A DNA stretch of 64,000 nucleotides from Candidatus Nealsonbacteria bacterium (GTDB lineage: Bacteria > Patescibacteriota > Minisyncoccia > Minisyncoccales > JAGMDC01), in NCBI GenBank assembly GCA_030612885.1, contig JAUWMZ010000003.1:69578-133577 (forward strand), in the 5' to 3' direction. The number at the start of each line of letters is the position of its first letter. Within the stretch, counting starts at the first letter, position 1. This document shows, one piece after another, positions 11,364 to 60,899 of this stretch. The position numbers were made by a program, and so were the translations under genes. Under the pieces are notes generated by a model. It made no database searches, had not been told where the DNA came from, and saw only the letters and a program-made list of their open reading frames with translations.

Positions 11364-11365
11364 AT

Positions 11366-12271
11366 ATGGATAGCAAAATCAAAAGATCCCCGCTATTCTA
11401 TGTCGGAGATAAATACAAGATAATGAGACAGATTAAAAATTTATTTCCTAAAGAAATAAATAATTTTTACGAGCCTTTTGTTGGTGGTGGTACTGTGTTT
11501 TTGAATATTGAGGCCAAAAAGTATTATCTAAATGATATAGATAAAAACCTTATTAATATACACAAGTTTTTAATTAAAAATTCAAGCAATCCAAATGAAT
11601 TTTTCAGAAGTATAAAAAAAATAATACGTAAATACAAATTATCTAGATCATATGAAGAGGATATAATTCCGGCTCGACTAAAGAAGAAATGGAAAAAAAC
11701 CTATTTTGCTAGATTCAACAAAGAAGGTTATGGAAAATTGAGGGAATGTGTCAATAAAAATAAAAAGAACGACCACTTAATTTTGTATGTTTTGCTTATC
11801 TACGGCTTTAATAGAATGCTGAGATTTAATGGCGGAGGTAAATTTAATCTTCCCGTGGGCAACGTTGATTTTAATAAAAACGTTGTTAATGCTCTAAATA
11901 ATTATTTTGATTTTGTGCATGGTAAAAAAATATCATTTTGCTCAAAAGATTTTAGAGGTTTTTTTTCTGGAAGAAAATACCTGAAAAACGATTTTGTTTA
12001 TTTGGATCCACCTTATTTAATTTCAGCAAGTGAATATAATAAATTTTGGGATAAAAAAGCTGAATATGATTTATTAAGTTCGATTGACGACTTGAATAAA
12101 AAAAGCGTTAAGTTTGCGTTGTCGAATATAACTCATTATAACGGGAATAAAAATAACTTGTTGATTAAATGGATGAAAAAATATAAAGCATATAAAATAA
12201 ATAGTAATTATATTAGCTATCACGACAATAAGAAAAAGAAAATCAAAGAGGTGTTAATTACTAATTCTTAA
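11366..12271 (+). CDS. Dam-family (D12 class) N6-adenine DNA methyltransferase
   Basis: FYVGDKYKIM..., FYEPFVGGGTVF (motif I) and FVYLDPPY (motif IV). Starts 2 nt after the preceding stop. Confidence 0.85.
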   Translation: MDSKIKRSPLFYVGDKYKIMRQIKNLFPKEINNFYEPFVGGGTVFLNIEAKKYYLNDIDKNLINIHKFLIKNSSNPNEFFRSIKKIIRKYKLSRSYEEDIIPARLKKKWKKTYFARFNKEGYGKLRECVNKNKKNDHLILYVLLIYGFNRMLRFNGGGKFNLPVGNVDFNKNVVNALNNYFDFVHGKKISFCSKDFRGFFSGRKYLKNDFVYLDPPYLISASEYNKFWDKKAEYDLLSSIDDLNKKSVKFALSNITHYNGNKNNLLIKWMKKYKAYKINSNYISYHDNKKKKIKEVLITNS

Positions 12272-12274
12272 CTT

Positions 12275-13813
12275 ATGGAGAAACGCCAGTCAGAATATAA
12301 GCCTTTATTATTCACAACGACACTTAGAAATCCCGAAAGATTGAAGTGGTTTTTAGGAGTGTTTAAAAATTATGATGGTAAAATTCTTACTAATGATTTA
12401 GCGAAAGAAATTGCTGGAGAAATAATAAGAATTGGATTGTATACTCCAACAAACTTGAGTGCATCTATAAAAAACAAAATAAAATCAAAAGAGCTTTTAA
12501 CTAATGAAGAAGTTTTAAAAGTTCTAAAAGATAATCCTCAAAATCATAAAGAAGCGGGTTTTAGCAAAGGATGGCCATCTAGATTTGATACTTGGTTCAA
12601 AATAGCAAAAGAATTGGGTTTCGTTTATTACAGGATTGGAGAAAAAATTAAATTTTCTGAGATTGGCTTAAAACTCATTAATAACAAGCATCCCGAATTT
12701 GAACAACAAGCATTCCTCAATGCTTTTGTAAAATATCAAAGCAATAATCCACTTAGACGCACATTAAATGAAAATGTCCCATTAATACTTCTACTTGAGG
12801 TAATTTCAAGATTGAATAAAGATAAAAATTTCAACGGAAGTGGTATCTCAAAATTAGAATTGCCATTAGTCATCTTTTGGAAAAATAATAATTCAGAAAA
12901 ATTATATCAATTAATAAAGGAGATAAGGAAAAAATACAGCTATAATCCAAGCTGGGAAGTAATCGTTGATATTTGTCTTAATCGAATCATGGAAGGTAAA
13001 TTTAAGAAATTCAATCATAAATCAATTATGATCGATTATCCGGATGAATTTATAAGAAAGATGAGACTCACGGGGTTAATTTCTTTAAGGGGCGGTGGTC
13101 GTTTTATTGATATCAACAAAAATGAACAGAAAAAAGTCAATTATGCTCTTAAAAATTATTCTAAATATAAGAAATACAAAACAGAAAAGGAATATTTTGT
13201 GTACATGGCAAGAATTGATAAGAGTTTGATTTTATCTGCAGCTAAGCCGGTAAGCGCGGATGAGAGAGACAAGTTTTTAGCTAAATGGATTAGTGTTTAT
13301 TCTTGGACTACGATTAAAGAAGAAATAATCAACTTGGCTAGAAAAAAATTAACAAAAGATGATATTCTAAAATATCTTTCAAATCCGATACGATTGGAAT
13401 TTCTTGTTGCCTTAGCAGTTAAATCCAAATTTTCAAATATAAAGGTTATACCTAATTATCCTTATGACGATGAGGGATTGCCGACCTCAACTGCTGGCGG
13501 TATAGGCGATAAAGGTGATATTGAATGCTACGAGGACATCAATAGAATTTTAATTGAGGTAACTATGTCCGAAGGAAGAACGCAAACAGTTATGGAGATA
13601 TGGCCCATAACCAGACATTTGGAAGAATTTAGTAAAAATAATGAGAACTCCATGTGTTATTTTGTTGCACCTAGTATATTTAAGGACTCGCAGAGACAAA
13701 TTGAATACGTGAAAGATAAAGAAAATCTTTTTATTCTGCCGAAAACTATTGAAGAATTTTTGAAACATATAAGTAACAGAGAAAAATTATTTTGTACCAT
13801 TAGTTCAAAATAA
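12275..13813 (+). CDS. Putative type II restriction endonuclease (possibly AlwI-like family)
   Basis: 512-aa ORF 3 nt downstream of two MTases. The C-terminal AGGIGDKGDIECYEDINRILIEVTMSEGRTQ has a D...E-x-T/K nuclease-like core. The AlwI-family assignment is from memory of the family pattern only. Confidence 0.5.
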   Translation: MEKRQSEYKPLLFTTTLRNPERLKWFLGVFKNYDGKILTNDLAKEIAGEIIRIGLYTPTNLSASIKNKIKSKELLTNEEVLKVLKDNPQNHKEAGFSKGWPSRFDTWFKIAKELGFVYYRIGEKIKFSEIGLKLINNKHPEFEQQAFLNAFVKYQSNNPLRRTLNENVPLILLLEVISRLNKDKNFNGSGISKLELPLVIFWKNNNSEKLYQLIKEIRKKYSYNPSWEVIVDICLNRIMEGKFKKFNHKSIMIDYPDEFIRKMRLTGLISLRGGGRFIDINKNEQKKVNYALKNYSKYKKYKTEKEYFVYMARIDKSLILSAAKPVSADERDKFLAKWISVYSWTTIKEEIINLARKKLTKDDILKYLSNPIRLEFLVALAVKSKFSNIKVIPNYPYDDEGLPTSTAGGIGDKGDIECYEDINRILIEVTMSEGRTQTVMEIWPITRHLEEFSKNNENSMCYFVAPSIFKDSQRQIEYVKDKENLFILPKTIEEFLKHISNREKLFCTISSK

Positions 13814-13861
13814 TTTTAAGGTATTATTTAAGCAATACAATTAAAATAAATTATCTTAAAA

Positions 13862-14725
13862 ATGTCATATCCTAAAACAATTAAAATTTATCTTGTTGAT
13901 GGTAAACCTGATGGAATTAAGACAGCAGAATTAAGTAATTGGGTGGGTAAAGCTATTGCTATACCGAGAAATAAGTTGAAAGATGTTAAAGAAAGAAAAG
14001 AATGTAATCAACCATCAATTTATTTTCTATTTGGTAAAGAAGACGAAAAATCTGTTTTGCCATATGTTTATATTGGTGAAGCTGAAATTTTATGGAAAAG
14101 ATTGATAACCCATGAAAGTAGCAAAGATTTTTGGCAAATGGCTGTTGCTTTTGTAAGTAAAGATAATAATTTAACTAAAGCTCATATTAAATATTTGGAG
14201 AGTTGTTGTTTGGGTATAGCAAAGTCAATATCTCGTTGTCTTTTGCAAAACACTTCTGAAAGTGCCTTGCCAAATCTTTCAGAATCCGACGTCTCTGAAA
14301 TGCAAGAATATTTGGATAATTTAAAAATCCTTTTAGCCAGTTTGGGATACCCTATTCTGCAAGAACCTGCGACAAGACAAGATAGAGACGTTGGAGTATT
14401 GCTTTATTGCCGAAGGAAAGGAGCCATAGGGATAGGTAGAATGACTAATGAGGGATTTATAGTTTATAAAAGTTCAACTGCCAGTACACAAATTAGTGAT
14501 GCTGTTAGAAAAAGAAATGAACACATTATTTCCTCTTTATTGCAATCCGGTCATATTAGTGAAATTTCAGATAAATTATTTAAGTTTGAAAAAGACTATC
14601 TTTTTAATAGTCCAAGTGCGGCTTCGGATTTAATAACGGGTAATTCTACGAGTGGCTGGGTATTATGGAAAACCAAACAAGGTAAAATTTTAAGGGAAGT
14701 AGAAAAGGATAAATTGAAAAATTAA
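13862..14725 (+). CDS. GIY-YIG nuclease domain protein with C-terminal DUF4357
   Basis: N-terminal SIYFLFG...YVYIGEAEILWKRL is GIY-YIG-like. C-terminal FNSPSAASDLITGNSTSGWVLWKT is typical of DUF4357. Confidence 0.7.
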   Translation: MSYPKTIKIYLVDGKPDGIKTAELSNWVGKAIAIPRNKLKDVKERKECNQPSIYFLFGKEDEKSVLPYVYIGEAEILWKRLITHESSKDFWQMAVAFVSKDNNLTKAHIKYLESCCLGIAKSISRCLLQNTSESALPNLSESDVSEMQEYLDNLKILLASLGYPILQEPATRQDRDVGVLLYCRRKGAIGIGRMTNEGFIVYKSSTASTQISDAVRKRNEHIISSLLQSGHISEISDKLFKFEKDYLFNSPSAASDLITGNSTSGWVLWKTKQGKILREVEKDKLKN

Positions 14726-14729
14726 AAAA

Positions 14730-14807
14730 ATTGACCAGTTAGTTTATAAACTTTATGGATTAACGAAAGAGGAGATTAAAATTGTTAGAAAAGAGTATGG
14801 TAAATAA
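14730..14807 (+). pseudogene. Remnant: last 25 codons of a type IIG / N6-MTase-type R-M gene
   Basis: IDQLVYKLYGLTKEEIKIVRKEYGK* is the stereotyped C-terminal tail (lVyxLYgLTeeEI) of Eco57I/TaqI-like and PglX-like enzymes. No upstream body is present. Confidence 0.6.
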
Positions 14808-15630
14808 AAAAACATATATCAATGAGCAGAAAATTTATTGGGACATTGAGGCCCCGATTCTTTATGATTATGTAAATTTTGCCAACCGACTACGGCCGTT
14901 ACAGATTCTTGATAATCAACATAAAAAGTATGGCATGCGGCAAGATGTCAAAAGAATGTATCTTGTGTTGTTTACCGAATTATATCAAAAGAGCCTTGAG
15001 GATTTAGCTGTTATTTTGCTCGCATTATACCGACGCTTTAATACTGATATGGCTTGTACATATCAGAAAAAGTTTAAGCAAAAAACTACGCCGGTTACTT
15101 ACACACTTATTAATTATAAAATAAAAGAAGCCACAATAAAAAATATTACTGATAAGTGTGTTTCAGAAAATGATTTTATTGGCAAACTACACATAGATGA
15201 TTTGGCTACACTTAATATAAATCTGTTATTGCCCCTTTTGGATATTCACGCATTTTACAGCGAACTTTATCAAAATATTCTCGCTTGGAAAAATGATCAA
15301 GAAAAGAGATTCCGAATTTATAACAAAATCAAACACGGAGCCGCTGTGGTGGGTAGTGCAAAAATTCTCAATAGTAAAAACGAGAATGCGCCAGCAGTAA
15401 TCTATGCGGATAAGGATGCGAATCTGACAGATCATCCGTTAATAGTTCATAGTCTTCATTTCATAAAAGACGAGTTTATTTTGCTCCAAAATGGGGTAGT
15501 GAAAGTCAGTGATTGTATTAGGGACCTTTTGGCTATTTATCTTTGCAAAAATTACCCAGACTTTTTAAAGAAACAAGGTTTTTCGTCGCCGTTGTTATTC
15601 TTTCAACAACGAAGACCATCTAATTCATAG
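14797..15630 (+). CDS. Hypothetical protein with a possible HEPN-like Rx6H motif
   Basis: ATG at 14797; the TTG start listed at 14782 overlaps the remnant. Contains KRFRIYNKIKHGAAV. No firm family assignment. Confidence 0.45.
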   Translation: MVNKKTYINEQKIYWDIEAPILYDYVNFANRLRPLQILDNQHKKYGMRQDVKRMYLVLFTELYQKSLEDLAVILLALYRRFNTDMACTYQKKFKQKTTPVTYTLINYKIKEATIKNITDKCVSENDFIGKLHIDDLATLNINLLLPLLDIHAFYSELYQNILAWKNDQEKRFRIYNKIKHGAAVVGSAKILNSKNENAPAVIYADKDANLTDHPLIVHSLHFIKDEFILLQNGVVKVSDCIRDLLAIYLCKNYPDFLKKQGFSSPLLFFQQRRPSNS

Positions 15631-15746
15631 AGGGAGGGAAAAAATATATTGGATTAATTCTATTTTCTGACACCACCCGAATTGAATCTGAGGGAATTTT
15701 AACTAAGTAATCAATTTTAGATAAAGCATTTAAAAAAATAAAAAAT

Positions 15747-16520
15747 ATGAGTCCTAATATTTTAATGGCTATAGCTACTGGAGTTATGGCGATATTTACA
15801 GTTTTAACTTTTTATTTAAATTATTGGCAACAGAAACAATTTAAAAATCCTGTTCCTCAAATTTATTTTTCAGAACCCCAAATAATGGCTATTTCCAAAA
15901 CGGAAGATAAAAAGATTTTAATAAATTTTCTAGTTTATTTTCTTAATTCAGGAACATCACCAATTATAGGATCTGGAATCGAGCATAGAATTAGCAATAT
16001 AGAAACTGGAGAAAAGTATAAATTTGGCAAAACAAGATTTTTCGGAGACCAAGATAAACCTTTCGGCGTGACAATTCCAGAACTTTATAAGCTCTTACCG
16101 AGAATTAAAAAAATCCAAGATTTTTATGGCTTTGAGCAAATGTTTAAAATTTTTTATGGGGAAATTATGGAAAAATACGGTATCGAAATATTTAGTCCAT
16201 ATCCTATGCAAAAAGTCGAAGATTTATGGTCACTAAAGGGACAAACCCTGAAAGAAGATTATATTTCAGAAACAGAACTAGATTCTTATTGGGTGATCTC
16301 GCCGTACAAATTAAAGATAAAAAGGTATTATATTAAAGTGCCGTATAGTAAAGAAAAATATTACTCTTTCAAAGTAAAATTAATACTACATTATTATTGC
16401 GGAAGTAAAGCAAACGAAATTTTGAGATCTAAAGAATTTAAAATTAAACCAGTGATAATTGGTAAAAGTTTATGTTTTTATGAAAATGAACTAAAAACAA
16501 GGAAAGTATCTCACGAGTAA
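15747..16520 (+). CDS. Hypothetical protein with an N-terminal TM helix
   Basis: MSPNILMAIATGVMAIFTVLTFYL is followed by a soluble domain. No motif recognised. Confidence 0.45.
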   Translation: MSPNILMAIATGVMAIFTVLTFYLNYWQQKQFKNPVPQIYFSEPQIMAISKTEDKKILINFLVYFLNSGTSPIIGSGIEHRISNIETGEKYKFGKTRFFGDQDKPFGVTIPELYKLLPRIKKIQDFYGFEQMFKIFYGEIMEKYGIEIFSPYPMQKVEDLWSLKGQTLKEDYISETELDSYWVISPYKLKIKRYYIKVPYSKEKYYSFKVKLILHYYCGSKANEILRSKEFKIKPVIIGKSLCFYENELKTRKVSHE

Positions 16521-16619
16521 TAAATTTTAACCAATCAATTTTAGCTAAAGTGAAAAAAATAGTGTCAACTCTATTTTTAGAAGTCAAATAAAAGGTCAAA
16601 GAAATAATTAAATAAAATT

Positions 16620-17102
16620 ATGGAGAAAGCAGAATTTATATTAGCAGTGAAAAATATATTCAATAGTTGCCGGAATCTATCTAAACTTTCGGGCGGGGTA
16701 CGCAAATTTACTCCTGACGGCAGGATGGTTGGTGATATCGGAGAGGTAATAGCTAGTGTTTTTTATCGAGTTAACTTACATAACGTGGGTCGTCATGATT
16801 GGGATGGTGTCTATAACAGTAAAAACGTACAGATAAAAGCAACTGGTGGAGATAGTACATATCTTAGAGAACCGCCTAAAGATGGTTTTGCTGATGGTTT
16901 ATTGATGGTATTTAAGATTGATCGAGAAAGTGGTAAATATGAACTTATTTACAACGGGGATATTCAACGCGTTTGGGATGCGTTAAATAGCATAAATACC
17001 GATAGGACTGGCTCTAAGATGATTTCGTTAAATCGTCTTAGAAAATTACAAAAATTTGTCTATCCTGAAAATATTATTCCAGTCAGGCAAAAAATGGGTT
17101 AA
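16620..17102 (+). CDS. Small PD-(D/E)xK-like (restriction-endonuclease-fold, DUF6998-like) protein
   Basis: GDIGEVIA ... HDWDG ... VQIKAT resembles an E / D / (E/Q)xK arrangement. The gene is visibly more G+C-rich than its neighbours. Confidence 0.4.
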   Translation: MEKAEFILAVKNIFNSCRNLSKLSGGVRKFTPDGRMVGDIGEVIASVFYRVNLHNVGRHDWDGVYNSKNVQIKATGGDSTYLREPPKDGFADGLLMVFKIDRESGKYELIYNGDIQRVWDALNSINTDRTGSKMISLNRLRKLQKFVYPENIIPVRQKMG

Positions 17103-17202
17103 TGGGGTCAGGAGCCTTTTTATAAATTAATGGATGCTAAAGAGTTAAAAGCCAAACAAAAAGTCGAAAAATTAATTGAGAAATAATAAATATAAATAAT
17201 TT

Positions 17203-17643
17203 ATGGCTCAAGATATACATATTTGGGAAAAAGAAATATATGATTGGGGAGAGTTAATGAAATTAAATCGCAGAGAAGGTGAGATTAAAAATAATAAAGA
17301 AGAATTTTATCCTTTTGGTAACTTCTCTCAACTTGAGGGAAGTTTGGCACACACAGAAGATTTTGAATTAAAATACTGGATTTTTCAGAAAAATAAAAAT
17401 GCATGTCATGATGAAAAGAAACAGAAAAAATCTACAGAGTATACCTTTCTTATAAAAGGTAGGGTTAAGGGATGGATAAAAAATAAGGTAGGAAAGAAAG
17501 AGGAAATTAATATGAATTCAGGGGATTGTATAATAATAAAACCTGGTTATTGTAGTAATTTAGTAGAAGAGGTTATAGAGGATTCTGAAGGAGTTACAAT
17601 AAAAGTTCCTAGTGACCCTAAAGATACTAAGAGACCGTGTTGA
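17203..17643 (+). CDS. Hypothetical protein, possibly cupin-like
   Basis: 146-aa ORF. Beta-rich C-terminal half (YTFLIKGRVKGWI...GDCIIIKPGY...GVTIKVP). Confidence 0.4.
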   Translation: MAQDIHIWEKEIYDWGELMKLNRREGEIKNNKEEFYPFGNFSQLEGSLAHTEDFELKYWIFQKNKNACHDEKKQKKSTEYTFLIKGRVKGWIKNKVGKKEEINMNSGDCIIIKPGYCSNLVEEVIEDSEGVTIKVPSDPKDTKRPC

Positions 17644-17725
17644 GAAAAAATAGGAGTCAGCTCTGTTTTTACAAACAGAAAGTTGAACTCTCTTTCGTTG
17701 AAACTACGGACGGGCAGGGGATTAA
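17644..17725 (+). repeat. Intergenic module, copy 1 (left block GAAAAAATAGGAGTCAGCTCTGTTTTT, right block AAACTACGGACGGGCAGGGGATTAA)
   Basis: The same two blocks, with a different 27-31 nt centre, recur at 18534-18609. The right block ends 4-6 nt before an ATG in both copies. Confidence 0.85.
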
Positions 17726-17731
17726 TTAATA

Positions 17732-17911
17732 ATGGAAAATAAACAATATAAATGTAAAAAATGTGGTTGCAAAATGAAAAAGAGTGGCCCTTATTTGCCA
17801 CGGAAAGAAGAGGGCGAACCAGCGCATAAAGGACATTTACCAGTTTATTATTGTTGTATGAATGAAAATTGCGATAATTTTATGAAAAGCATTGGAGTAT
17901 TAGAGAAATAA
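17732..17911 (+). CDS. Small zinc-ribbon protein (59 aa; below the ORF-track cutoff)
   Basis: MENKQYKCKKCGCKMKKSGPYLPRKEEGEPAHKGHLPVYYCCMNENCDNFMKSIGVLEK* with CxxC ... CxxxxC. GGGGA lies 11 nt upstream. Confidence 0.5.
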   Translation: MENKQYKCKKCGCKMKKSGPYLPRKEEGEPAHKGHLPVYYCCMNENCDNFMKSIGVLEK

Positions 17912-17915
17912 ATCT

Positions 17916-18533
17916 ATGAAAGAAAAAATCAAGAGATGGTTTAGTTGGCTTTGGAAAAAATTTTTGGGGAAAAAGGAAATTAAGAAATTATCAAATGAAG
18001 AATTCAAGCTTCTTGTTGGTACTTTAAGCTTTACTTATCGGCAATTCTGTTTTAATAAAATTGGGCATAAAAAAATTGACGATAAACCTTGGGAAAATTT
18101 TAAAGACATATGGAGTCATATTCTTATTAGTTGGCGACATTACTATTTAATAAATTTAGCAAAAATTTTTGATAAAAAATCCTATAATACGAGGAATGGC
18201 AAGAAAATCACTCTTTCTATTTTTCGTGCTATACCCAAATCTAAATTTAGTGCAGACGATAAGGAAACTATTAAAAAAATTATGCGAGTTCGGAATGAAA
18301 TGTTAGCTCATCTTGAAGCAGAAAAAGTATTACAGGGAAAAAGGAACGAAGAAGCTTACGGATTGGACTTTGAAGGCAAGCAGATTGAATCTCTAATTGG
18401 CAACACTTTTAAATTGCTTAATCAGATAAGATGGGATTATGGCTTTCCTTATGAATTAAATCAACGCCAACAAAAAAATGATGCTGAAAAAGAATTTGAT
18501 AAGTGGTATAAGGTTTTTAAAGAAGCACAATAG
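17916..18533 (+). CDS. HEPN-like (AbiU2-type) protein candidate
   Basis: MRVRNEMLAHLE contains the Rx4-6H HEPN signature (R-N-x-x-x-A-H). Alpha-helical, 205 aa. Confidence 0.4.
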   Translation: MKEKIKRWFSWLWKKFLGKKEIKKLSNEEFKLLVGTLSFTYRQFCFNKIGHKKIDDKPWENFKDIWSHILISWRHYYLINLAKIFDKKSYNTRNGKKITLSIFRAIPKSKFSADDKETIKKIMRVRNEMLAHLEAEKVLQGKRNEEAYGLDFEGKQIESLIGNTFKLLNQIRWDYGFPYELNQRQQKNDAEKEFDKWYKVFKEAQ

Positions 18534-32065: not shown

Positions 32066-32647
32066 CTATCGCTCAAATTTTTCAACTGTAAATTTGTAAA
32101 TTATTATTTTTTCTGTATCAGGGTTAATATTTCCTTTCTGGCAGGCAATGGAGATTTGCTTTTCAACAGTATCCACTCCTTCTAAATCAGGCAAAAGCAG
32201 TCCTGATTTAAAATGAGTTCTTAGCGCAGGTTCAAAAATAACGTCAGAGCCGGGAGAAAAGGACTGGGATTTTACAAGGATGCCGTATTTTTTCGGATCT
32301 AATTCTTTTGTGCTCTTTATTTGTTCTGGTTTATTTAAAACATACACAGTATAAGAAAGCTCGGGAAGTTCCTGTTTCTGAATAGGGGAGAAGCGATAAT
32401 CCTCAGTTGCCGCGGCAATGGCATTATGAATAATTTCCTGGGCAATATTTTCTTTTGTCGGCAAGTAAGTACCAATACAGCCACGAAGTTTTCCTTGATT
32501 TTCAATAGTAACAAAAACACCTGCTTTACGAAAAAACTCTTTAGTTAGATTTTCAGGGGCGGAAATCATCCTTCCTTCTTTAAGATATACTTCCACCGCC
32601 TTTTTAGCAAGTGAGCTATATTGGTTCATAAAAAGTGTATTAAACAC
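32066..32647 (-). CDS. AMMECR1 domain protein (AmmeMemoRadiSam system protein A-like)
   Basis: LRGCIGTYLPTKENIAQEIIHNAIAAATEDYRFSPI is the canonical AMMECR1 core. Confidence 0.88.
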   Translation of the reverse strand: MFNTLFMNQYSSLAKKAVEVYLKEGRMISAPENLTKEFFRKAGVFVTIENQGKLRGCIGTYLPTKENIAQEIIHNAIAAATEDYRFSPIQKQELPELSYTVYVLNKPEQIKSTKELDPKKYGILVKSQSFSPGSDVIFEPALRTHFKSGLLLPDLEGVDTVEKQISIACQKGNINPDTEKIIIYKFTVEKFER

Positions 32648-32988
32648 CTGTAAATTCTTGCCTCTGGTTTTATTCTACAATGATTTGAGCAATAAAAAAA
32701 GAGGAGAAATTGTTCTCCTCGTCATATGTTTTCTGAAGAATATAGTTTTCTAGACAGATACCGATTTGTCAGAAGAAAGAAAGTAAATGGGGCGATAAAT
32801 ACTACGATAGCAAAGTAGACGAGAGAATCTGAATTACAAATCAATCCAGTTGCTGCAAACATTAATCCAAATAGTATTCCAATTATATCGGTATTCCTGT
32901 TATACTTTTTTTGGATTCTTCAAGTATTCTTTCCATTTTTTTATTTCACGTCCTAAACATTTTGTAAAACAACTATAAAAGAATTGTG

Positions 32989-33051
32989 TGCTCGAGGAGG
33001 AAATCCTCCACTTCTACCTGGTTGAGCAGCGTGCGCTTACACCGTCGAGCA
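32989..33051. repeat. GC-rich 63-nt structured element in an AT-rich gap
   Basis: Outer stem TGCTCGA / TCGAGCA encloses GGAGGAaaTCCTCC and a GC-rich segment (gagcagcgtgcgcttacacc). It is too short and irregular to be a tRNA. Confidence 0.5.
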
Positions 33052-33091
33052 TTATTAAAGATAGCAATTTGCGTTATTTTTGTCAAGAAAA

Positions 33092-33703
33092 TTATCCTAA
33101 TTTGAAATTTACGACTAAATAGCCGACACCAAAGGGGTATTCGTAGGATAGAATCTCTGGCTGCCAGTCAATACCTGAAGCGTCTAAAATTCCTAAAAGA
33201 AAAGAAAAAGAACGCAGACCGCATTCGCCGGCTTCAGGAAAATATTCGTCTAATTTCAAAAAGTTTTTAATATCCTTTTTCTTTAGATATTCAATCAATG
33301 CCTTGTCAAATTTCGGACCGTCAGGATGAAGACCATAAGGACCGTCTTCTTTTAAGCAGTGAGACATATCACCAGAAGCGATCAAGGCATATCTCTTTTC
33401 TTTTTCCAATTTATTAGAAAACTTTTTTCCCCGCTGAAAATAAAAATCCGGGCTTTTATCAGGAATAAGTAATTGCCGGTTTGGAATACGTTGTTCAGGA
33501 TCCAAAAAATAAAGTGGAACATTAAAACCCCAATCAGGATGAGGAGAAGAAATAATAATATTGTCAGGATTAGATTCCTTTAATTTCTTTCCTAAAAATT
33601 CCAAATTTTCAATTGTTTTTTTAACTTTCTCTCTATCCTCTGAAGAGCCAACTTCAGGCAAAAGCAAGGGAGGATGAGGAGAGAAGCAAGCGAAAGAAAT
33701 CAT
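33092..33703 (-). CDS. Class III extradiol dioxygenase subunit B-like (LigB/Memo-fold) protein
   Basis: MISFACFSPHPPLLLPEVGS...IIISSPHPDW...ASGDMSHCL shows the His-rich pattern of the LigB/Memo superfamily. It sits between the AMMECR1 and radical-SAM genes. Confidence 0.6.
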   Translation of the reverse strand: MISFACFSPHPPLLLPEVGSSEDREKVKKTIENLEFLGKKLKESNPDNIIISSPHPDWGFNVPLYFLDPEQRIPNRQLLIPDKSPDFYFQRGKKFSNKLEKEKRYALIASGDMSHCLKEDGPYGLHPDGPKFDKALIEYLKKKDIKNFLKLDEYFPEAGECGLRSFSFLLGILDASGIDWQPEILSYEYPFGVGYLVVNFKLG

Positions 33704-33704
33704 T

Positions 33705-34739
33705 TTAACATATTAACATTTTAACATTTTGTATGATATCAATTTTTTCATTACATTTTGGGCATTTGCCGTTTTTGTCAAAACGTTTGATAGTGTAGCC
33801 GAGCCGCTCAATTGCTAAGGTCCCGCATTTTGGGCAATAAGTGTTTTCGCTTTCTAATCCAGGCACATTGCCAGTATAAACATATTTTAAGCCGGCTTTT
33901 TTACCAATTTCATAAGCCATTTTTAAGGTCTTGACCGGTGTATCAGGCAAGTGCTGTAATTTCCAGGAAATTGCTCCGGAAAATTGAGAAATATGCCAGG
34001 GTGTTTCAGCTCCTAAGTCCTGCTTAATAAAATTAGCAATATTTTCAAACATTTTTTTAGAATCAGTTAAACCAGGAATGGCTAAGGTGGTTACTTCCAG
34101 CCAAATTTTCGCTTTTTTTATTCGTTTTAAAGTATCTAAAACCGGTTGGACACGGCCGCCGCAGTATTTTCTGTAAAATGCGTCATCAAAACTTTTTAAG
34201 TCAATATTAGCAGCATCTAAATAGGGTGAGATTAAGTCAAAAAGTTCTTTTGACCAAAAACCATTGCTAACCCAGACATTTTTTATGCCTTGTTTTTTGG
34301 CTAATTTCATTGTATCTAAAGCGTATTCAGAAAAAATAGTAGGTGAAGTATAGGTATAAGCAATAGAGGGTAAATTATTCTCTTTGGCAATTTTAACAAT
34401 TTCTTCTGGAGGTAAATCTTCTCCTTCAATTTTTCCGGTTAGTTGGGGCACTTGAGAAATATCATAGTTTTGGCAATTTGCGCATCTAAAATTACAGCCA
34501 ACTGTGGCAATAGATAGGGATTGAGTGCCGGGCAGAAAATGAAAAAATGGCTTTTTCTCAATAGGGTCAATATTACAGGCAATTGCTTTTCCATAATTTA
34601 GAGCATAAAGTTTTCCATCAATATTTTCTCGGACCCCGCAAATTCCTCTTTTCCCTTGTTCAATAACACAATGATGAGCGCAATTCTGGCACTGAACTTT
34701 TTTTTCCGCAAGTTTTTTGTATAATATGGCTTCTTTCAC
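33705..34739 (-). CDS. AmmeMemoRadiSam-system radical SAM enzyme (PflA-like activase family)
   Basis: N-terminal Cys cluster CQNCAHHCVI...GICGVREN and radical-SAM CNFRCANCQN. C-terminal Zn ribbon CPKCG...CPKC. Confidence 0.85.
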   Translation of the reverse strand: MKEAILYKKLAEKKVQCQNCAHHCVIEQGKRGICGVRENIDGKLYALNYGKAIACNIDPIEKKPFFHFLPGTQSLSIATVGCNFRCANCQNYDISQVPQLTGKIEGEDLPPEEIVKIAKENNLPSIAYTYTSPTIFSEYALDTMKLAKKQGIKNVWVSNGFWSKELFDLISPYLDAANIDLKSFDDAFYRKYCGGRVQPVLDTLKRIKKAKIWLEVTTLAIPGLTDSKKMFENIANFIKQDLGAETPWHISQFSGAISWKLQHLPDTPVKTLKMAYEIGKKAGLKYVYTGNVPGLESENTYCPKCGTLAIERLGYTIKRFDKNGKCPKCNEKIDIIQNVKMLIC

Positions 34740-34744
34740 TATTT

Positions 34745-35104
34745 TTATCTTATCATTATCTTAAAGAATAAAAAAGAGGGGCGGAGATACCCCTTTTGAA
34801 TAAACTTTGTTTTTTTCTCTCTTTTTTCTGCTTTTTCTAATAATGACTTTTCTGCTTTTATCCTCTTTTCTTCAGTAATTATCAGATTATTGGGTCTTTG
34901 ATGATTATTAGCTCTCTGCAAAATCCTATTATAGACATGTTCCAATTCTTTTTTTGTTTTGATTTCTTTAGTTTTTTCTTCGGACAAAAAATGAGCAAAA
35001 TGCTCACTTCTTAATATGCGCCGAAGAACTTCCGCATTTTGTTCTGACGTAAACCCAGAGTAATAAAATTCTTCAAAACTCAAACTCAAAGATTCTTCAG
35101 CCAT
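34745..35104 (-). CDS. Hypothetical charged protein (119 aa)
   Basis: ORF with upstream TTGACA-N17-TAATAT on the minus strand (about 35165-35193). Its C-terminus is read through the hairpin AGGGGtatctccgCCCCT. Confidence 0.4.
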   Translation of the reverse strand: MAEESLSLSFEEFYYSGFTSEQNAEVLRRILRSEHFAHFLSEEKTKEIKTKKELEHVYNRILQRANNHQRPNNLIITEEKRIKAEKSLLEKAEKREKKTKFIQKGYLRPSFLFFKIMIR

Positions 35105-35270
35105 ATCTTTCTTGCCTCCTTTTTTTACTTTTTCTTTCCGCCTTTTATAAAAAGAACTATATTAAAATATTACAACAAAAAAATAATTTTGTCAAAAAAA
35201 ATAGAGGAAATTAATCCTCATTTTTGTTTTTTGTCCAGAATTATAAAAGAAATATATCTATGTTCAACTC

Positions 35271-36164
35271 CTACAATTCTCTACACCTATTCCTAATTGT
35301 AACCTCGGTCACACCAGTAATCTTAGATATTTCTCTTTGTTTTCGCCATACACCGCCTGCTATCGCAGCGATATAAATAGCTGCAGCCGCTATTCCTATC
35401 GGTCCTCGCCCGTTGGTTAGTTCCGCTTCTTCTGCTTTTATTGTAATCTCTATTGCTTTTTGTCTTATACTATCATTTAATCCAAGTTCAGAACAGAAAC
35501 GCGGTATGTAATCAACAGGAGAGGCAGGTGAAACTTTCAAATCAAGGTCTCTGATTAGAAATTTTCTAGCTCTACTTATTTCTTTTTCTCCAACTCTTGA
35601 TACGTCTCTCATTTCTTCCAGTGTTCGTGATACGCCATATTGTCTGCAGGTAATATACAATAGCGCGGTAGTTATACCCTCTATGCTACGCCCGCGGATT
35701 AGCCGCTTATCCATTGCTTCGCGGTATAATATAGACGCTGCCTCCCTGATATTCACAGGCAGTTTAAGCGCGGATGCCATCCGATCAATCTCGGAGAGCG
35801 CGAAGATGAAACTCCTTTCGGTTGTGCTTACAATGTGAGTCCGCCGTTGCCATTTCTGTAATTTATATTCTCCCGAACTCCGACCTGAACCTGACGAGAT
35901 AACTGTACTCAAACCTTTGTCGTGTATTCGATAAGTCATTGGTGCACCCGTCCTCGCTTTAGCGGCCGCTTGCCCAGGGTCAAAAGCGCGCCATTCAGGA
36001 CCAAGGTCAACAATTTTCTCATCTATTACCATACCGCAATCAGCGCAGTAAATTTCCGCTTTACCATAATCACATATCAAACATTTAGAGCCGCATTCTG
36101 GACATTTTGTTATTTCTTCAGTTTTTAATGGACAATTATTTTCTTTTTCTTTCATTTTTCCCAT
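35271..36164 (-). CDS. tfb: Archaeal-type transcription initiation factor B (TFB/TFIIB homologue), full length
   Basis: Zn ribbon CPECGS-x15-CADCG, B-reader/linker DLGPEWRAFD, two cyclin-like repeats (ALKLPVNIREAASILYREA...IRGRSIEGITTALLYITCRQ and ELGLNDSIRQKAIEITIKA...GRGPIGIAAAAIYIAA) and a C-terminal HTH ISKITGVTEVTIRNRCREL. The gene is markedly more G+C-rich than its flanks. Confidence 0.9.
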   Translation of the reverse strand: MGKMKEKENNCPLKTEEITKCPECGSKCLICDYGKAEIYCADCGMVIDEKIVDLGPEWRAFDPGQAAAKARTGAPMTYRIHDKGLSTVISSGSGRSSGEYKLQKWQRRTHIVSTTERSFIFALSEIDRMASALKLPVNIREAASILYREAMDKRLIRGRSIEGITTALLYITCRQYGVSRTLEEMRDVSRVGEKEISRARKFLIRDLDLKVSPASPVDYIPRFCSELGLNDSIRQKAIEITIKAEEAELTNGRGPIGIAAAAIYIAAIAGGVWRKQREISKITGVTEVTIRNRCREL

Positions 36165-36205
36165 TTCCAGTTTTTAAATAACTGTTGATTTATCTAACCA
36201 GTTTA

Positions 36206-36234
36206 TTGATAAAAAGTCAATGTTTTGCTATGCT
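36206..36234 (+). promoter_or_regulatory. Promoter TTGATA-N17-TATGCT for thpR (leaderless arrangement)
   Basis: The -10 ends 6 nt before the ATG at 36241. Confidence 0.5.
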
Positions 36235-36240
36235 AAACTA

Positions 36241-36804
36241 ATGATGAAAAGGATTTTTATTGCTGTAAATCTGCCTGAAAGAATAAAAGAAGAACTTCTA
36301 CTTTATCATGAAAAATGGCCAGATTTACCTATTAAATGGGTAAAGCCGGATAATCTTCATATTACTCTAATTTTTCTTGGCAATATCAACGACCAGGAGA
36401 TTTTAGAGATTGATAGGGCTGTTAAAGAAATTACTGCGCGATATCAATCCTTTTCAATAAATTTGAATAGAATTTGCTACGCTCCTCCTAAAAAAATACC
36501 ACCGCGAATGGTCTGGGCAGAAGGACAAAAAGTAGAAAAATTAGCTAATCTAAAACAGGATTTAGAAAAATCTTTAATTAATTCTGGGATTAACTTCTCT
36601 TTGGAAAACAGGGATTTTAGGCCGCATATTACTTTAGGTAGAATTAAAGCTTGGGAATGGAAAAAAATAGAACCAGAAGAAAGACCGGAAATAAATGAAG
36701 ATATTTCCTTATCTTTTAATGTAAATTCAATTGAAGTAATGGAAAGCGAATTAAAACGTGCAGGTCCTAAATATACTGTATTAGAATCAATATCATTAAA
36801 ATGA
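36241..36804 (+). CDS. thpR: RNA 2',3'-cyclic phosphodiesterase (2H family, ThpR/LigT)
   Basis: Two HxT motifs: LHITLIFLG and PHITLGRI. The start at 36241 (MMKRIFIAVNLPE) is preferred over 36220, which lies inside the promoter. Confidence 0.88.
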   Translation: MMKRIFIAVNLPERIKEELLLYHEKWPDLPIKWVKPDNLHITLIFLGNINDQEILEIDRAVKEITARYQSFSINLNRICYAPPKKIPPRMVWAEGQKVEKLANLKQDLEKSLINSGINFSLENRDFRPHITLGRIKAWEWKKIEPEERPEINEDISLSFNVNSIEVMESELKRAGPKYTVLESISLK

Positions 36805-38162
36805 AAATTCACTTTATCGGAATTGGCGGGATTGGCGTTTCTGCTTTAGCTCAATATTATTTAGCAAAAGGCGAGCAAGTTTCTGGCTCTGATTTAGCAT
36901 CTTCTGAAATCACAGAATTACTTAAAAGAAAGGGTGCTAAAATTATTATAGACCAAAACGCAAAAAATATAACCAAAAATATAGATTTAGTAATTTATAG
37001 TCCGGCAGTCAAAGAAGATAATCCGGAATTAAAAGAAGCGAAAAATTTAGGTATTAAATGTTTGTCTTATCCAGAGGTATTAGGAGAATTGACAAAAAAA
37101 TACTTTACTATTGCCATAACCGGCACTCATGGTAAAAGCACAACCACAGCAATGGTTGCTCTGCTCTTAATAAAAGCCGGTTTTGACCCGACAGTAATTG
37201 TCGGAACAAAATTAAAAGAATTCAATAATTCAAACTTCAGAATGGGCAAAAGCAAATACTTAATTATTGAGGCCTGCGAGCATGAAGAATCATTTTTAAA
37301 TTATTGGCCTAAGGCTGCTGTTATTACTAATATTGAGAAAGACCATCTTGATTATTATAAAAATTTGAATAATATTTTGAAAGCATTTAAAAAGTTTATT
37401 TCGCATTTGCCAAAAAATGGAGTGTTGATAACTAACAAAGATGACAAAAATATTGCTCAAATTTTAATATCCAAGGCCAAAAAATACACAGGTCAGACCT
37501 GTGTATTTTCGTTAAATCAAAAGAGAGAGGCAGAGAAATTAAGAAAGATTCTAAGAATTCCTGGAGAGCATAATATTTATAATGCTTTGGCAGCATTAAC
37601 AGTAGCCAGGGTCTTGAAAATTCCAGATAAGATTAGTTTTAAGGCATTATCAGAATACAAAGGCGTTTGGCGTCGTTTTGAAATAAAAAAGTCAATAGTT
37701 AATGGTCAACAGTTAATAGTAATTTCGGATTATGCTCATCATCCAACAGAAGTAAAAGCAACATTAAAAGCTAGTAGAGAAAAATTTGCGAGGCAAAAAA
37801 TCTGGTGTGTTTTTCAGCCGCATCAATATCAAAGAACATATTATTTATTTAATGATTTCGTCAAAGTTTTTAAAGAGGCATTAGACGAGAACTGGATTGA
37901 TAAGTTAATTATTACTGATATTTATGATGTGGCTGGCAGGGAAGATAAAGAGATTAAAAAGAAAGTAAGTTCTAAAAAGCTAATTAAAGAAATAAAAGAA
38001 AACTTGAAAAATTTTGCTATGGCAAGAAATGTCAAACATATTTCATCTATTAAGCAAACAGCAAATTATTTAAAGAAAAATCTGGAGGACAAAGAAATTC
38101 TAATTATAATGGGAGCAGGGGATATCTATAAATTAAGTTTTCCACAGGTAGCTATTGTTTGA
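36801..38162 (+). CDS. murC: UDP-N-acetylmuramate--L-alanine ligase
   Basis: HFIGIGGIGVSALA, ITGTHGKSTTT and the Mur ligase middle and C-terminal domains. A 4-nt overlap with thpR. Confidence 0.92.
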   Translation: MKIHFIGIGGIGVSALAQYYLAKGEQVSGSDLASSEITELLKRKGAKIIIDQNAKNITKNIDLVIYSPAVKEDNPELKEAKNLGIKCLSYPEVLGELTKKYFTIAITGTHGKSTTTAMVALLLIKAGFDPTVIVGTKLKEFNNSNFRMGKSKYLIIEACEHEESFLNYWPKAAVITNIEKDHLDYYKNLNNILKAFKKFISHLPKNGVLITNKDDKNIAQILISKAKKYTGQTCVFSLNQKREAEKLRKILRIPGEHNIYNALAALTVARVLKIPDKISFKALSEYKGVWRRFEIKKSIVNGQQLIVISDYAHHPTEVKATLKASREKFARQKIWCVFQPHQYQRTYYLFNDFVKVFKEALDENWIDKLIITDIYDVAGREDKEIKKKVSSKKLIKEIKENLKNFAMARNVKHISSIKQTANYLKKNLEDKEILIIMGAGDIYKLSFPQVAIV

Positions 38163-52705: not shown

Positions 52706-53662
52706 ATGGAGAAAAGCTCAATACCAATAATTCAATATTTACCAGATTTCTTGGATTGGCTTGATATAGAAAAAGGATTATCATCTAAATCTCAAGAAAA
52801 TTATACAAGATTTCTAAAAAAATTTTGGGATTGGCTTAAAATAAATAAATTAGAAAATATAAAACCTTATGAACTTACTCCGGACCATATTTGGAAATAT
52901 CGTGTCTTTCTTTCTAGACAATATATTTCAAAAAGAAAAAAAACATTAAAAAAATCTACCCAGAATTATTATTTAATAGCTCTTAGATCTCTTTTAAACT
53001 ATTTTGCCGAGCGTGATATTCTGTCTTTGCCGGCAGAAAAAATAAAATTAGCAAAAAATAAAGAGGAAACACAAGTCCGCTTTCTTACATTAGAACAGTT
53101 AGAAAAGTTATTCTCCATACCTAATATATCTAAAGATCAAGGTTTACGTGATAGAGCTATTTTAGAAGTGCTTTTTTCTACTGGAATGAGAATAGCAGAA
53201 TTAGTCGCTCTTGATAGAAATCAGATTAAAATAAAAACTGGCATGAAAGAATTAGAACTTGGAATTGTTGGCAAAGGAGAAAGGGCTCGAACAGTTTATT
53301 TCTCAGAAAGAACATTGTTCTGGTTAGATAAATATCTTAAAAATCGTAATGATAAAGCAGATGCTTTGTTTATTAATTATCGTAGAAAAAAAGGGACGTC
53401 TTCACGATTGACCGCTCGTTCAATAGAAAAAAAAATAAAGAAGCACGCCCTACTTGCTGGTCTACCAATAACAACTACGCCACATGTAATGCGACACAGT
53501 TTTGCCACAGATTTGCTTAACCAAGGAGTCGATTTAAGAACAATCCAAGAATTTTTAGGACATAAGAGTATTAGCGCTACTCAAATATACGCTCACGTTA
53601 CTTCAAAAAAACTTCGTGAAATTCATCGCCAATTTCACAGTGGTAAAAGACTAAAAGAATAA
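52706..53662 (+). CDS. Tyrosine recombinase XerC/XerD family
   Basis: RDRAILEVLFSTGMRIAEL, HVMRHSFATDLL, LGHKSISATQIYAHV (R-H-R-Y catalytic set). Confidence 0.9.
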   Translation: MEKSSIPIIQYLPDFLDWLDIEKGLSSKSQENYTRFLKKFWDWLKINKLENIKPYELTPDHIWKYRVFLSRQYISKRKKTLKKSTQNYYLIALRSLLNYFAERDILSLPAEKIKLAKNKEETQVRFLTLEQLEKLFSIPNISKDQGLRDRAILEVLFSTGMRIAELVALDRNQIKIKTGMKELELGIVGKGERARTVYFSERTLFWLDKYLKNRNDKADALFINYRRKKGTSSRLTARSIEKKIKKHALLAGLPITTTPHVMRHSFATDLLNQGVDLRTIQEFLGHKSISATQIYAHVTSKKLREIHRQFHSGKRLKE

Positions 53663-60155: not shown

Positions 60156-60899
60156 TTACTCTAAAACAAAATTGGAAAATTTTTTTATTTCTCCTTTGTA
60201 TTTTACCCAATTTTCAATAAAATCTTTACATCCCTGTTCTCCTCCCATTGCTTTTAGCATGGAGTTCCTTTCGGTCACTGAAGGAAAATTCTTTTTTCCG
60301 AGATAATCAGAATAACTAGACCATTTATAATTTTTTAAAAACTCAATTACTTTTTCCATATTCTTTATACCTATTTCTTTCCATTTTGGCTCTATAAGAG
60401 ATATAGGATTAGTATGGATATAGACAAATACAATTTTTAATTGTCTATCGGTTTTGATATGAATTGTCTTAAATCGTCCTTGAAAAAGGTAGCCCTTCCG
60501 ATTATATTTTTTATTGAAATAATTAGCATATCCTGTACCGAACTTTCTCATAAATTTAGTGATTCCTTCATCTTTAGTTTGTTTAATTAATAAATGGATA
60601 TGATTCGGCATAAAACAAAAAGTAAAGATTTCTACTAATAAATCTCTTTTGTCAGGAATATTAACTGAAATAGGCGAAGACGGACTTCGCCCGGCTTGTT
60701 CTCTGGATAATTTTTTTATGGTTTGAATCTCACGACGTCTTTTACCAATATTTACTGAATTAATATTATTAAATTCATAAAGAGAAAAAATGCCTCTATA
60801 GTAATCGTTAATGTCTTTGAAAATTAAGGAATCGCCAACTCCTCTGAGCACAATATGATAGATTTCGTTATTTATTAATTCTTGTTGTCTAATGGGCAT
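60156..60899 (-). mobile_element. IS200/IS605-family Y1 HUH transposase homologue of the REP-associated (RAYT-like) type
   Basis: HUH motif FMPNHIHLLIK, GYLFQGRFK, catalytic-Tyr motif VYIHTNPIS, KWSSYSDYLG. There is no TnpB partner, and it is flanked by inverted REP-like hairpins. Confidence 0.8.
60672..60692. repeat. REP-like GC hairpin, copy D, in frame inside the RAYT-like gene
   Basis: AGGCGAAG-ACGGA-CTTCGCCC encodes (E)QAGRSPSSP on the minus strand. Confidence 0.85.

Follow-up and report, generated by a model that had tools for sequence, protein, structure and literature searches.

A TFB gene in a patescibacterial genome

We analyzed a stretch of 64,000 nucleotides (hereafter, the window) from a Candidatus Nealsonbacteria bacterium (GenBank assembly GCA_030612885.1, contig JAUWMZ010000003.1), which carries on its minus strand, at 35271..36164, a gene of the transcription factor B (TFB/TFIIB) family. 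The gene encodes 297 residues followed by a TAG stop codon at 35271-35273; the NCBI start call is the second ATG (36155), which gives 294 residues. An earlier note, made from the sequence alone, had recognized a TFB in this open reading frame (ORF) by the motifs CPECGS...CADCG, DLGPEWRAFD and TEVTIRNRCREL. All are present as claimed, both in the ORF list and in the sequence, and the identification was upheld by Pfam, by matches in the PDB and by structural modelling. Pfam detected two TFIIB repeats (PF00382, E 9.7e-42) and the TFIIB Zn ribbon (PF08271, E 8.2e-15), and the best matches in a PDB sequence search were human TFIIB (1.6e-55) and Pyrococcus TFBc (7e-50). The NCBIfam model PRK00423 aligned over profile positions 6-302 of 312, with a score of 370.6 bits; this is just below its cut-off of 384, which fits the absence of the C-terminal tail described below. 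Sigma domains (PF04542 and PF04545, regions 2 and 4) were not found in the protein by Pfam at E ≤ 0.1.

The Zn ribbon (36015..36107, minus strand, as are all parts of the gene; residues 20-50, with PF08271 matching residues 20-61) has the metal ligands C21, C24, C40 and C43, invariant in an alignment of 52 sequences, and forms three beta strands in the model. The B-reader and B-linker, delimited by alignment (35829..36014, residues 51-112; DLGPEWRAFD ... GAPMTYRIHDKGLST), agree with the consensus of ANME-1 (a group of anaerobic methanotrophic archaea, Methanophagales), including a linker deletion of ANME-1 type. The first cyclin-like repeat (35547..35828, residues 113-206), also found by Pfam, is modelled with a pLDDT of 92-98 and superposes on 1d3u_B. 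The second repeat and the C-terminal helix-turn-helix (35274..35546, residues 207-297) were placed by alignment to human TFIIB. Here, V288 and R291 are intact; they align to human V283 and R286, which we take to be the TFIIB residues contacting the TFB recognition element (BRE), as reportedly described by Lagrange et al. in 1998. In an AlphaFold2 model built on the 52-sequence alignment, the core (residues ~112-297) has a pLDDT of 92-98 and the ribbon is three-stranded, while the reader and linker are disordered, as expected of an unbound TFB. Foldseek superposed the core on Pyrococcus woesei TFBc (1d3u_B) with an rmsd of 1.2 Å over 186 columns and a TM score of 0.87. Overall, the ORF is a genuine, essentially intact and structurally complete TFB.

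The earlier note had also described the frame as free of disruptions. This stands for the domains, which are all in frame, but not for the C-terminus, where the TAG cuts off the last ~10-13 residues relative to all orthologues. These run 10-15 residues past ...KEL, the point at which the window protein ends, and an in-frame remnant of the lost tail (ELNIDIFLL and a stop; 35241..35270, minus strand) can be recognized when its translation is compared with the tails ...ELSEELVIEELNIFL and ...EMSKELAIEEIDTFL. The premature TAG is also present in an independent assembly (locus L146), the sole other assembly found of the window lineage. At the other end of the protein, the TFBs annotated with 369 residues in locus L001 and 350 residues in L010 have N-terminal extensions starting within the conserved promoter and leader described below (L001 10001-10060, L010 1910-1960). 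We rejected a common N-terminal extension: these are probably over-long gene calls through an in-frame ATG in the leader, with a later Met as the likely start.

Genomic context and integrity of the assembly

The left border of the gene is formed by thpR (probable start 36241) and murC, at 36220..38162 on the plus strand and divergent from TFB (TIGR02258 and TIGR01082). The right border is an AmmeMemoRadiSam cluster on the minus strand (32066..34739), with a radical SAM gene (rSAM; 33705-34739), a LigB-like gene (33092-33703) and AMMECR1 (32066-32647). Together with efp, these are the bacterial neighbours reported by the earlier note, and NCBIfam and Pfam confirmed them. The thpR-murC arrangement was identical in all orthologous loci. 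In the whole window, the same databases identified thpR, murC, murD, MraY, MurG, FtsW, a D-Ala-D-Ala carboxypeptidase, UppS, EF-P, L27, L9, DnaX, CTP synthase, GluRS, AspRS, an AddA-like helicase, restriction-modification genes and tRNAs. The genome around TFB is bacterial. No archaeal RNA polymerase (RNAP) subunit appeared in the Pfam annotation of the 64-kb window, and TBP was not found by tblastn, with an approximate P. woesei-like query, in the window or in about 1 Mb of related loci.

At least seven further assemblies (from NCBI, ENA, JGI and Logan, with contigs of up to 330 kb) have TFB at the same site. These include L001 (135-kb contig, GCA_049642725.1), L002 (165-kb contig), L003 (Logan contig), L004/L005 (GCA_030643485.1) and L006/L007 (GCA_030630045.1, with the sister protein on a 330-kb contig); TFB occupies the same slot in L010, L058, L082 and L120 as well. 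The orthologous contigs are labelled Minisyncoccales bacterium, Candidatus Nealsonbacteria bacterium or Candidatus Parcubacteria bacterium, all of them Patescibacteria/Minisyncoccota.

Many public TFB contigs are mis-binned, with ANME-1-type ones labelled Desulfobacteria, Nitrosotalea or Bathyarchaeia, and so we considered whether the window could be chimeric or mis-binned, or its contig really archaeal (e.g., DPANN). The chimera concern, raised already in the earlier note, was ruled out by L146, a 2.6-kb contig from a different ENA sample that matches window 34801-37377 at 99.88% and spans both junctions, containing murC, thpR, TFB with the same TAG and the next gene, and by the synteny in the other assemblies. 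The window moreover holds bacterial-only markers (L27, L9, EF-P, DnaX, the Mur pathway), and the composition of TFB at third codon positions is shifted toward the bacterial value (see below). We thus give an artefact of this kind a negligible probability.

The donors were ANME-1 archaea

The proteins nearest to the window TFB were those of ANME-1/Methanophagales, with 73-79% amino acid identity (79% for GoMg1) and about 80% identity in nucleotides; the named near relatives were ANME-1 GoMg1 and GoMg2, Methanophagales metagenome-assembled genomes (MAGs) and Methanospirareceae. In the alignment, the bacterial copies have in common the B-linker deletion specific to ANME-1. The archaeal origin proposed earlier is therefore upheld by identity, linker deletion and phylogeny, and can be narrowed to ANME-1/Methanophagales. 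In ANME-1, TFB lies in the order thioredoxin-reductase-like gene, RNase HII, TFB, NucS/EndoMS (Endo_dU) in L015 and L018, and is preceded, about 35-40 nt upstream of the ATG, by promoters of the form CTTTATATA (L008, L009, L015 and L018). Since the ANME-1 copies lie in a conserved archaeal context with TATA promoters, the direction of transfer was from archaeon to bacterium. L008 and L009 have only the downstream Endo_dU in common with the L015/L018 context, with SecDF upstream.

No close relative of the window TFB was found in viral contigs (IMG/VR), and we rejected a viral origin on the basis of that scan. Another window gene, LPG-synthase-like, was considered as a second transfer from ANME-1 and discarded, having only 23% identity. 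ANME-1 genomes also contain a second group of TFB paralogues (~300 residues; proteins P0123-P0175), 50-57% identical to the L082 query; judging from the sequences, the bacteria appear to have taken the TFB1 type alone. Some database labels call for caution: the ANME-1-type TFB contigs L028, L039 and L042 are filed as 'Desulfobacteria bacterium', 'Nitrosotalea sp.' and 'Bathyarchaeia archaeon', probably through mis-binning, and protein P0040 is labelled Methanophagales (1.4-kb contig) yet groups with the bacterial type-A TFBs.

The earlier note had argued for transfer from base composition. The gene is indeed richer in G+C than its flanks (0.426 versus 0.326 for the window, with the bin 35501-36000, at 0.468, being the window maximum), but the argument was overstated, as the excess lies chiefly at codon positions 1 and 2. 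At third positions (GC3), the window TFB has 0.33 and the bacterial copies 0.33-0.36, between the bacterial flanks (0.19-0.29, and 0.22-0.29 beside the window gene) and ANME-1 TFB (0.42-0.50), which indicates that the gene is partly ameliorated.

Probable repeated acquisition and allele exchange

The bacterial copies are mutually 68-75% identical in nucleotides, with the exception of the L006/L002/L058 group (80-98%). The window copy is nearest to the ANME-1 locus L013 of the GoMg1 group (79.8%), and at most 74.9% identical to the other bacterial copies. L006 is also nearest to L013 (82.3%), with 81.5% identity to L002 and 69.7-74.4% to the window, L004, L001 and L010. The copy in L001 is instead nearest to L018 (83.3%, one 180-nt stretch reaching 91%; other bacterial copies at most 73.6%), and that in L010 to L038 (77.0%; other bacterial copies at most 72.7%). 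For L004 and L002, the nearest donor was ambiguous. Most bacterial copies have an ANME-1 gene, and not another bacterial copy, as their closest match in nucleotides. In agreement with this, synonymous divergence (dS) to GoMg1 (L012) and to L018 was 0.80 and 1.10, respectively, for the window, 0.76 and 1.25 for L006, 1.70 and 0.72 for L001, and 2.05 and 0.95 for L010.

Neighbour-joining bootstrap trees did not resolve the monophyly of the bacterial copies, which have long branches. We built maximum likelihood (ML) trees with purpose-written code (BLOSUM62-derived reversible model, four gamma categories, 35 taxa, 287 columns). In the best one, the window, L004, L006, L002, P0040, P0045 and P0046 were mixed with the GoMg1 group or sister to it, L001 and L010 stood beside L018, and L082, P0122 and P0066 were at the base of crown ANME-1. 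When the first two bacterial groups were constrained to a clade without GoMg1, the cost was 24.8 log-likelihood units (Kishino-Hasegawa, KH, p 0.018), and constraining all bacterial copies in this way cost 40.8 (p 0.004), both p-values being anti-conservative; trees with GoMg1 within or beside the bacterial copies were not rejected. The donor lineage, which the earlier note had left to a TFB phylogeny, thus comes out as ANME-1 subgroups, and probably as more than one of them: the GoMg1 group and the L018/L038 group.

TFB allele types are also discordant with the genome tree, in which L001 is close to the window and L006, and L010 is close to L004. The dS of TFB was 0.81 between the window and L004, versus 1.1-2.0 for the flanks, and 0.70 between L002 and L006, versus 1.1-1.85 (0.61 for thpR). 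Given that different lineages have different ANME-1 subgroups as nearest relatives, the slot was probably filled or refilled at least two times from ANME-1. The simplest reading is a conserved expression slot, with ANME-1 DNA having probably supplied a new ORF on at least two occasions and with exchange between bacterial lineages as well. A further case concerns L002 (10001-10894) and L058 (1182-2087): their TFBs are 98% identical, with a dS of 0.03, in flanks with a dS of 0.16-0.47 and with thpR proteins 69.5% identical. This suggests a recent sweep or an allele exchange between strains.

The insertion slot between rSAM and thpR

We surveyed the site by scanning JGI metagenomes with the thpR alignment, obtaining 80 related loci (L066-L145), 61 of which show both borders. 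The slot was empty in 37 of these 61 informative loci, with rSAM 17-160 bp from thpR, and filled in the remaining 24. TFB was the cargo in only one of the 24 (L082); it was also present in L120, where the rSAM border is missing. The other cargo is mutually unrelated, and includes a PEPCK-like protein of 530 residues (L072, L074 and L075), an HMG-CoA-synthase-like protein (L102), membrane proteins, Cys-rich proteins of 180-236 residues (L099-L103), and inteins or LAGLIDADG-like inserts inside the rSAM gene (L079 and L092). The rSAM|thpR junction (equivalent to window 34740-36240) is an insertion hotspot. In a thpR+murC tree, the window, L006, L001, L002 and L004 formed a clade with 100% bootstrap, apart from all relatives without TFB; the TFB-bearing L082 and L120 were nested amid lineages with an empty slot.

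In three related loci (L108, L115 and L121), the slot (equivalent to window 35105-36219) is occupied by genes of the sigma-70 family (289-309 residues; regions 2, (3) and 4) in the same orientation as TFB. Sigma factors are functional analogues of TFB, as initiation factors that position RNAP on promoters; they differ in that the window TFB has no sigma domains and another fold. Their occurrence at one site with TFB could be a coincidence in a hotspot. We also considered an in-situ displacement, in which these genes would have the promoter of TFB in common, and found no support for it, as only L121 has a loosely similar motif, with the wrong spacing. That TFB now serves the bacterial RNA polymerase in place of a sigma factor, for which the sigma-70 genes in the slot of sister lineages are the sole hint, is highly improbable.

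In most loci of the clade, an orphan gene lies downstream of TFB. In the window it is a lineage-specific ORF of 119 residues (34745..35104, minus strand), shortened and diverged with respect to the gene of 201-231 residues in sister loci (L002 11033-11653, L004 9070-9765, L006 9048-9653 and L010 3104-3781). It belongs to no Pfam family, and only four homologues were found among 5.8 billion proteins. We dismissed it as a TBP-like partner of TFB for these reasons, and because L001 and L082 lack it and the window has only a shortened form. Elsewhere in the window, we observed a defence-type island on the plus strand (9549-18533), encoding a RadC-JAB protein fused to a D12 adenine methyltransferase, a second D12 methyltransferase, an AlwI-family restriction endonuclease, DUF4357, DUF6998 and an AbiU2-type HEPN protein. 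The window also has a tyrosine recombinase (XerC/D-like or of the phage integrase family; 52706-53662, plus strand) and an IS200/Y1-transposase-like ORF (60156-60899, minus strand), with no link seen between either of them and the TFB slot.

TFB has bacterial expression signals

Upstream of TFB is a predicted sigma-70-type promoter (36192..36220, minus strand), with TTGACT at -35 (36215-36220), a 17-nt spacer and TTAGAT at -10 (36192-36197). This promoter was pointed out in the earlier note; its elements are conserved among orthologues, but the -10 is weak and the statistics on the single sequence are not significant. The key A is missing from position 2 of the window -10, and the region had no more promoter-like matches than shuffled sequences (8 vs 7.0 +/- 2.3). 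Across eight orthologous loci, however, TTGAC is invariant at -35, followed 17 nt on by TTAGAT, TATGAT, TAGAAT or TTAGGT. The promoter is therefore credible because its -35 and -10 are conserved over the eight loci, and not from the window sequence alone.

A palindrome, ATTGA-N7-TCAAT (36205-36221, minus strand), overlaps the -35; in orthologues it reads CTTGA-N7-TCAAG, with both members of the outer pair altered. The palindrome may serve a dimeric regulator as its operator. Alignment of the orthologous upstream regions also revealed a conserved 5' leader, GTTATTTAAAAAC (36170..36182, minus strand). We considered whether this leader is a leftover archaeal TATA/BRE promoter and rejected the idea, as it is unlike the CTTTATATA of the ANME-1 TFB genes and has no convincing homology to it.

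Downstream of the gene there is an intrinsic terminator (35194..35219, minus strand), with the hairpin GAGGA-TTAATT-TCCTC at 35204-35219 and a T-run at 35194-35203; terminator scan and folding gave the hairpin -7.7 kcal/mol, with z = -2.6. The hairpin and T-run claimed earlier are confirmed by comparison, since the terminator is kept in orthologues via compensatory changes in the stem (AGGGA/TCCCT, GGGAA/TTCCC and GGGGG../..CCCCC). Beyond it, the downstream genes have a separate promoter, TTGACA-N17-TAATAT (35167..35195, minus strand), conserved in the window, L002, L004, L006 and L010. With its own promoter and terminator, and a separate promoter downstream, TFB would therefore be an independent transcription unit of bacterial style, and one that, judging by the conservation of these elements, is maintained by selection.

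The window gene is like TFB1, the main TFB of ANME-1 (GoMg1; L011-L015 and L018), in its domain order, B-linker deletion, invariant Zn-ribbon and B-reader residues and BRE-recognition helix. It differs in having a sigma-70-type promoter and an intrinsic terminator in place of a TATA/BRE promoter and the RNase HII-TFB-NucS context, and its protein has a shorter N-tail, a truncated C-tail, an approximately two-fold higher dN/dS and a partly ameliorated GC3.

Selection on the bacterial copies

We estimated dN/dS by the Nei-Gojobori method. Bacterial TFBs gave 0.13-0.29, as compared to 0.08-0.19 for murC, rSAM and ligB, 0.19-0.43 for thpR, and a median of 0.09 for pairs of ANME-1 TFBs. By these estimates, the bacterial TFB is shown to be under purifying selection, about twice more relaxed than in ANME-1; the comparison across relatives suggested in the earlier note thus points to constraint. 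Substitutions are also unevenly distributed along the protein: bacterial copies are altered at 9-24% of the sites invariant in ANME-1 (45 sequences), versus 40-57% of the variable sites. Among the modules, conservation in the bacterial copies is highest for the B-reader, with a mean identity of 77-78% and with 17 of the 22 ANME-invariant sites kept in all six context-confirmed bacterial copies; the two cyclin repeats and the ribbon come next, and the linker and N-tail are lowest.

These data bear on whether TFB is a nearly neutral passenger, that is, host DNA taken up into a recombination hotspot, kept ANME-1-like through gene conversion and functionless. The variable cargo of the slot would suit a passenger, as would the mosaic alleles (some segments reach 91% identity with ANME-1 genes), the premature stop in the window copy, and a dN/dS roughly double the values for the neighbours and for ANME-1 TFB. 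However, none of the copies seen is other than full length and in frame, although the flanks have diverged within the clade to a dS of 0.7-2.0, dN/dS is far under 1, and substitutions avoid the ANME-invariant sites. In addition, the archaeal promoter was swapped for a conserved bacterial one, the terminator stem shows compensatory changes, and small streamlined genomes seldom keep a useless gene of 0.9 kb. We therefore find a passenger quite unlikely. The origin of the bacterial TFB, its fixation and its selection, taken together, appear to us very nearly certain.

Possible function of the bacterial TFB

The explanation that we favour as a whole is an ANME-1-derived TFB that sits in a fixed slot and would act on the transcription machinery of the host; we assign it a probability of roughly 0.45. 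The bacteria, which are tiny and of the episymbiont type, would live physically associated with ANME-1, as inferred from the gene transfer and from shared data sets: one global cold-seep catalogue (PMC10491686) is the source of two MAGs with TFB (CSMAG_2115 and CSMAG_2101) and of several relatives of the ANME-1 donors. Members of Minisyncoccia, some of them from the same order and including Nealsonbacteria, Yanofskyibacteriaceae and Minisyncoccus, have been described as ectoparasites of methanogenic archaea (PMC13293708, PMC12281837). The bacterium would produce TFB from its fixed bacterial promoter as a mimic or competitor of the TFB of the ANME-1 host; this protein would engage the host RNAP and/or TBP, and host transcription would then be depressed or redirected. 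We favour this host-directed reading because the best-constrained modules suit contact with an archaeal-type RNAP and TBP, and because the alleles are refreshed from ANME-1. The mechanism itself, taken alone, we put forward tentatively, as something short of an even chance.

The nearest parallel comes from viruses of archaea. Rudiviruses encode TFB homologues, and the RIP/ORF145 protein of Acidianus two-tailed virus mimics the B-linker and blocks the archaeal RNAP (PMC9501531). In these cases, as would hold for the bacterial TFB, the gene belongs to a parasite of archaea, and its product, which resembles TFB or imitates the B-linker, is presumed or shown to target the RNAP of the host. The viral proteins, however, act inside the infected cell, while the carrier here is a bacterium, and delivery across two envelopes would be needed. 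The likeness may thus be taken as a functional analogy only.

Alternatively, TFB could have been repurposed inside the bacterium, as a DNA-binding regulator or as a sigma-like factor for the bacterial RNA polymerase. Several observations would be compatible with such a role: the conserved bacterial promoter and terminator together with purifying selection, the lack of an evident export signal, the divergence of the BRE-recognition helix in several lineages (as with a changed DNA specificity), the conserved palindrome over the -35, which could be an operator, and the sigma-70-family genes in the slot of three related lineages. Nevertheless, a regulator would not need the Zn ribbon and B-reader, which are best conserved and whose known partners are only the dock and cleft of archaeal and eukaryotic RNAP; to our knowledge, the B-reader has a role only inside the RNAP cleft. 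TFB binds DNA poorly without TBP, and TBP was not found in the window or related loci with our approximate query. It is also hard to square repeated fresh ANME-1 alleles with co-adaptation to bacterial partners, and the sigma genes may be a coincidence in a hotspot with many unrelated cargos. Overall, we regard repurposing as unlikely. Interference with an archaeal host appears better supported than a repurposed regulator, given that the RNAP-facing B-reader is the best conserved module and that the alleles track ANME-1 sublineages.

Several points nonetheless weigh against interference with the host. The window TFB has no obvious signal peptide, its N-terminus being highly charged, and the gene is not linked to any secretion or injection system. 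The window protein has lost its C-terminal tail and has the changes Y294C and K295R in its last helix, which together could represent decay in the window lineage. The BRE-contacting Arg is replaced by Gly or Val in L002, L058, P0045, P0046 and P0056, so that canonical promoter recognition is not kept uniformly; this loss would fit a decoy still binding RNAP and TBP, and also drift or a new DNA specificity. Regarding the repeated acquisition, the KH test was applied with simple ML code to a tree picked a posteriori, and if ANME-1 evolves slowly and the bacterial branches fast, part of the closer-to-ANME-1 pattern could arise from this alone, although two different nearest donors would not.

A more specific form of the host-directed reading is that the slot acts as a 'host-factor cassette', into which the clade would repeatedly take the TFB allele of whichever ANME-1 it currently lives on; the protein, made from the fixed bacterial promoter, would then be delivered to the archaeal cell, shutting down or reprogramming host transcription. 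We consider this version less likely than not. If true, TFB would be the first cellular cross-domain effector that is a general transcription factor, and a direct genomic marker of patescibacterial parasites on ANME-1, a key uncultured methane oxidiser.

Relation to previous reports and implications

In the full-text literature, we found no report of TFB/TFIIB in Patescibacteria, the candidate phyla radiation (CPR), Parcubacteria or Minisyncoccota, and no link between Patescibacteria and ANME-1. GenBank already labels one such protein 'transcription initiation factor IIB [Candidatus Parcubacteria bacterium]'. Genes have also crossed between archaea and Patescibacteria in other cases, for example those of form II/III and form III RuBisCO, and such transfers are recurrent according to a 2026 preprint and, reportedly, to Wrighton et al. 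2016. Those are metabolic enzymes that work in any cytoplasm, in contrast to TFB, which is informational and whose partners, TBP and archaeal RNAP, are absent from bacteria. By sequence, the TFB described here is a new member of its family. Its arrangement, a selected archaeal general transcription factor that is refreshed recurrently and carried with bacterial expression signals, is a putative variant of host-factor mimicry.

TFB/TFIIB is regarded as characteristic of archaea and eukaryotes, and metagenomic work even relies on it as a marker exclusive to archaea (e.g., PMC12869995). Here, it appears as a selected gene with bacterial expression signals, fixed in a bacterial clade; informational genes are what one would least expect to see transferred between domains when the recipient lacks their partners. 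Contigs of this kind will be misassigned by taxonomic calls based on TFB and by filters for MAG contamination. The TFB variants form a natural set, some with altered BRE-recognition residues, that may be dominant competitors of an archaeal pre-initiation complex and would be useful probes of archaeal transcription. Most CPR hosts are unknown, and with TFB, host assignment becomes testable for one CPR lineage. Through parasitism on ANME-1, these bacteria may possibly add a new layer of control on anaerobic methane oxidation.

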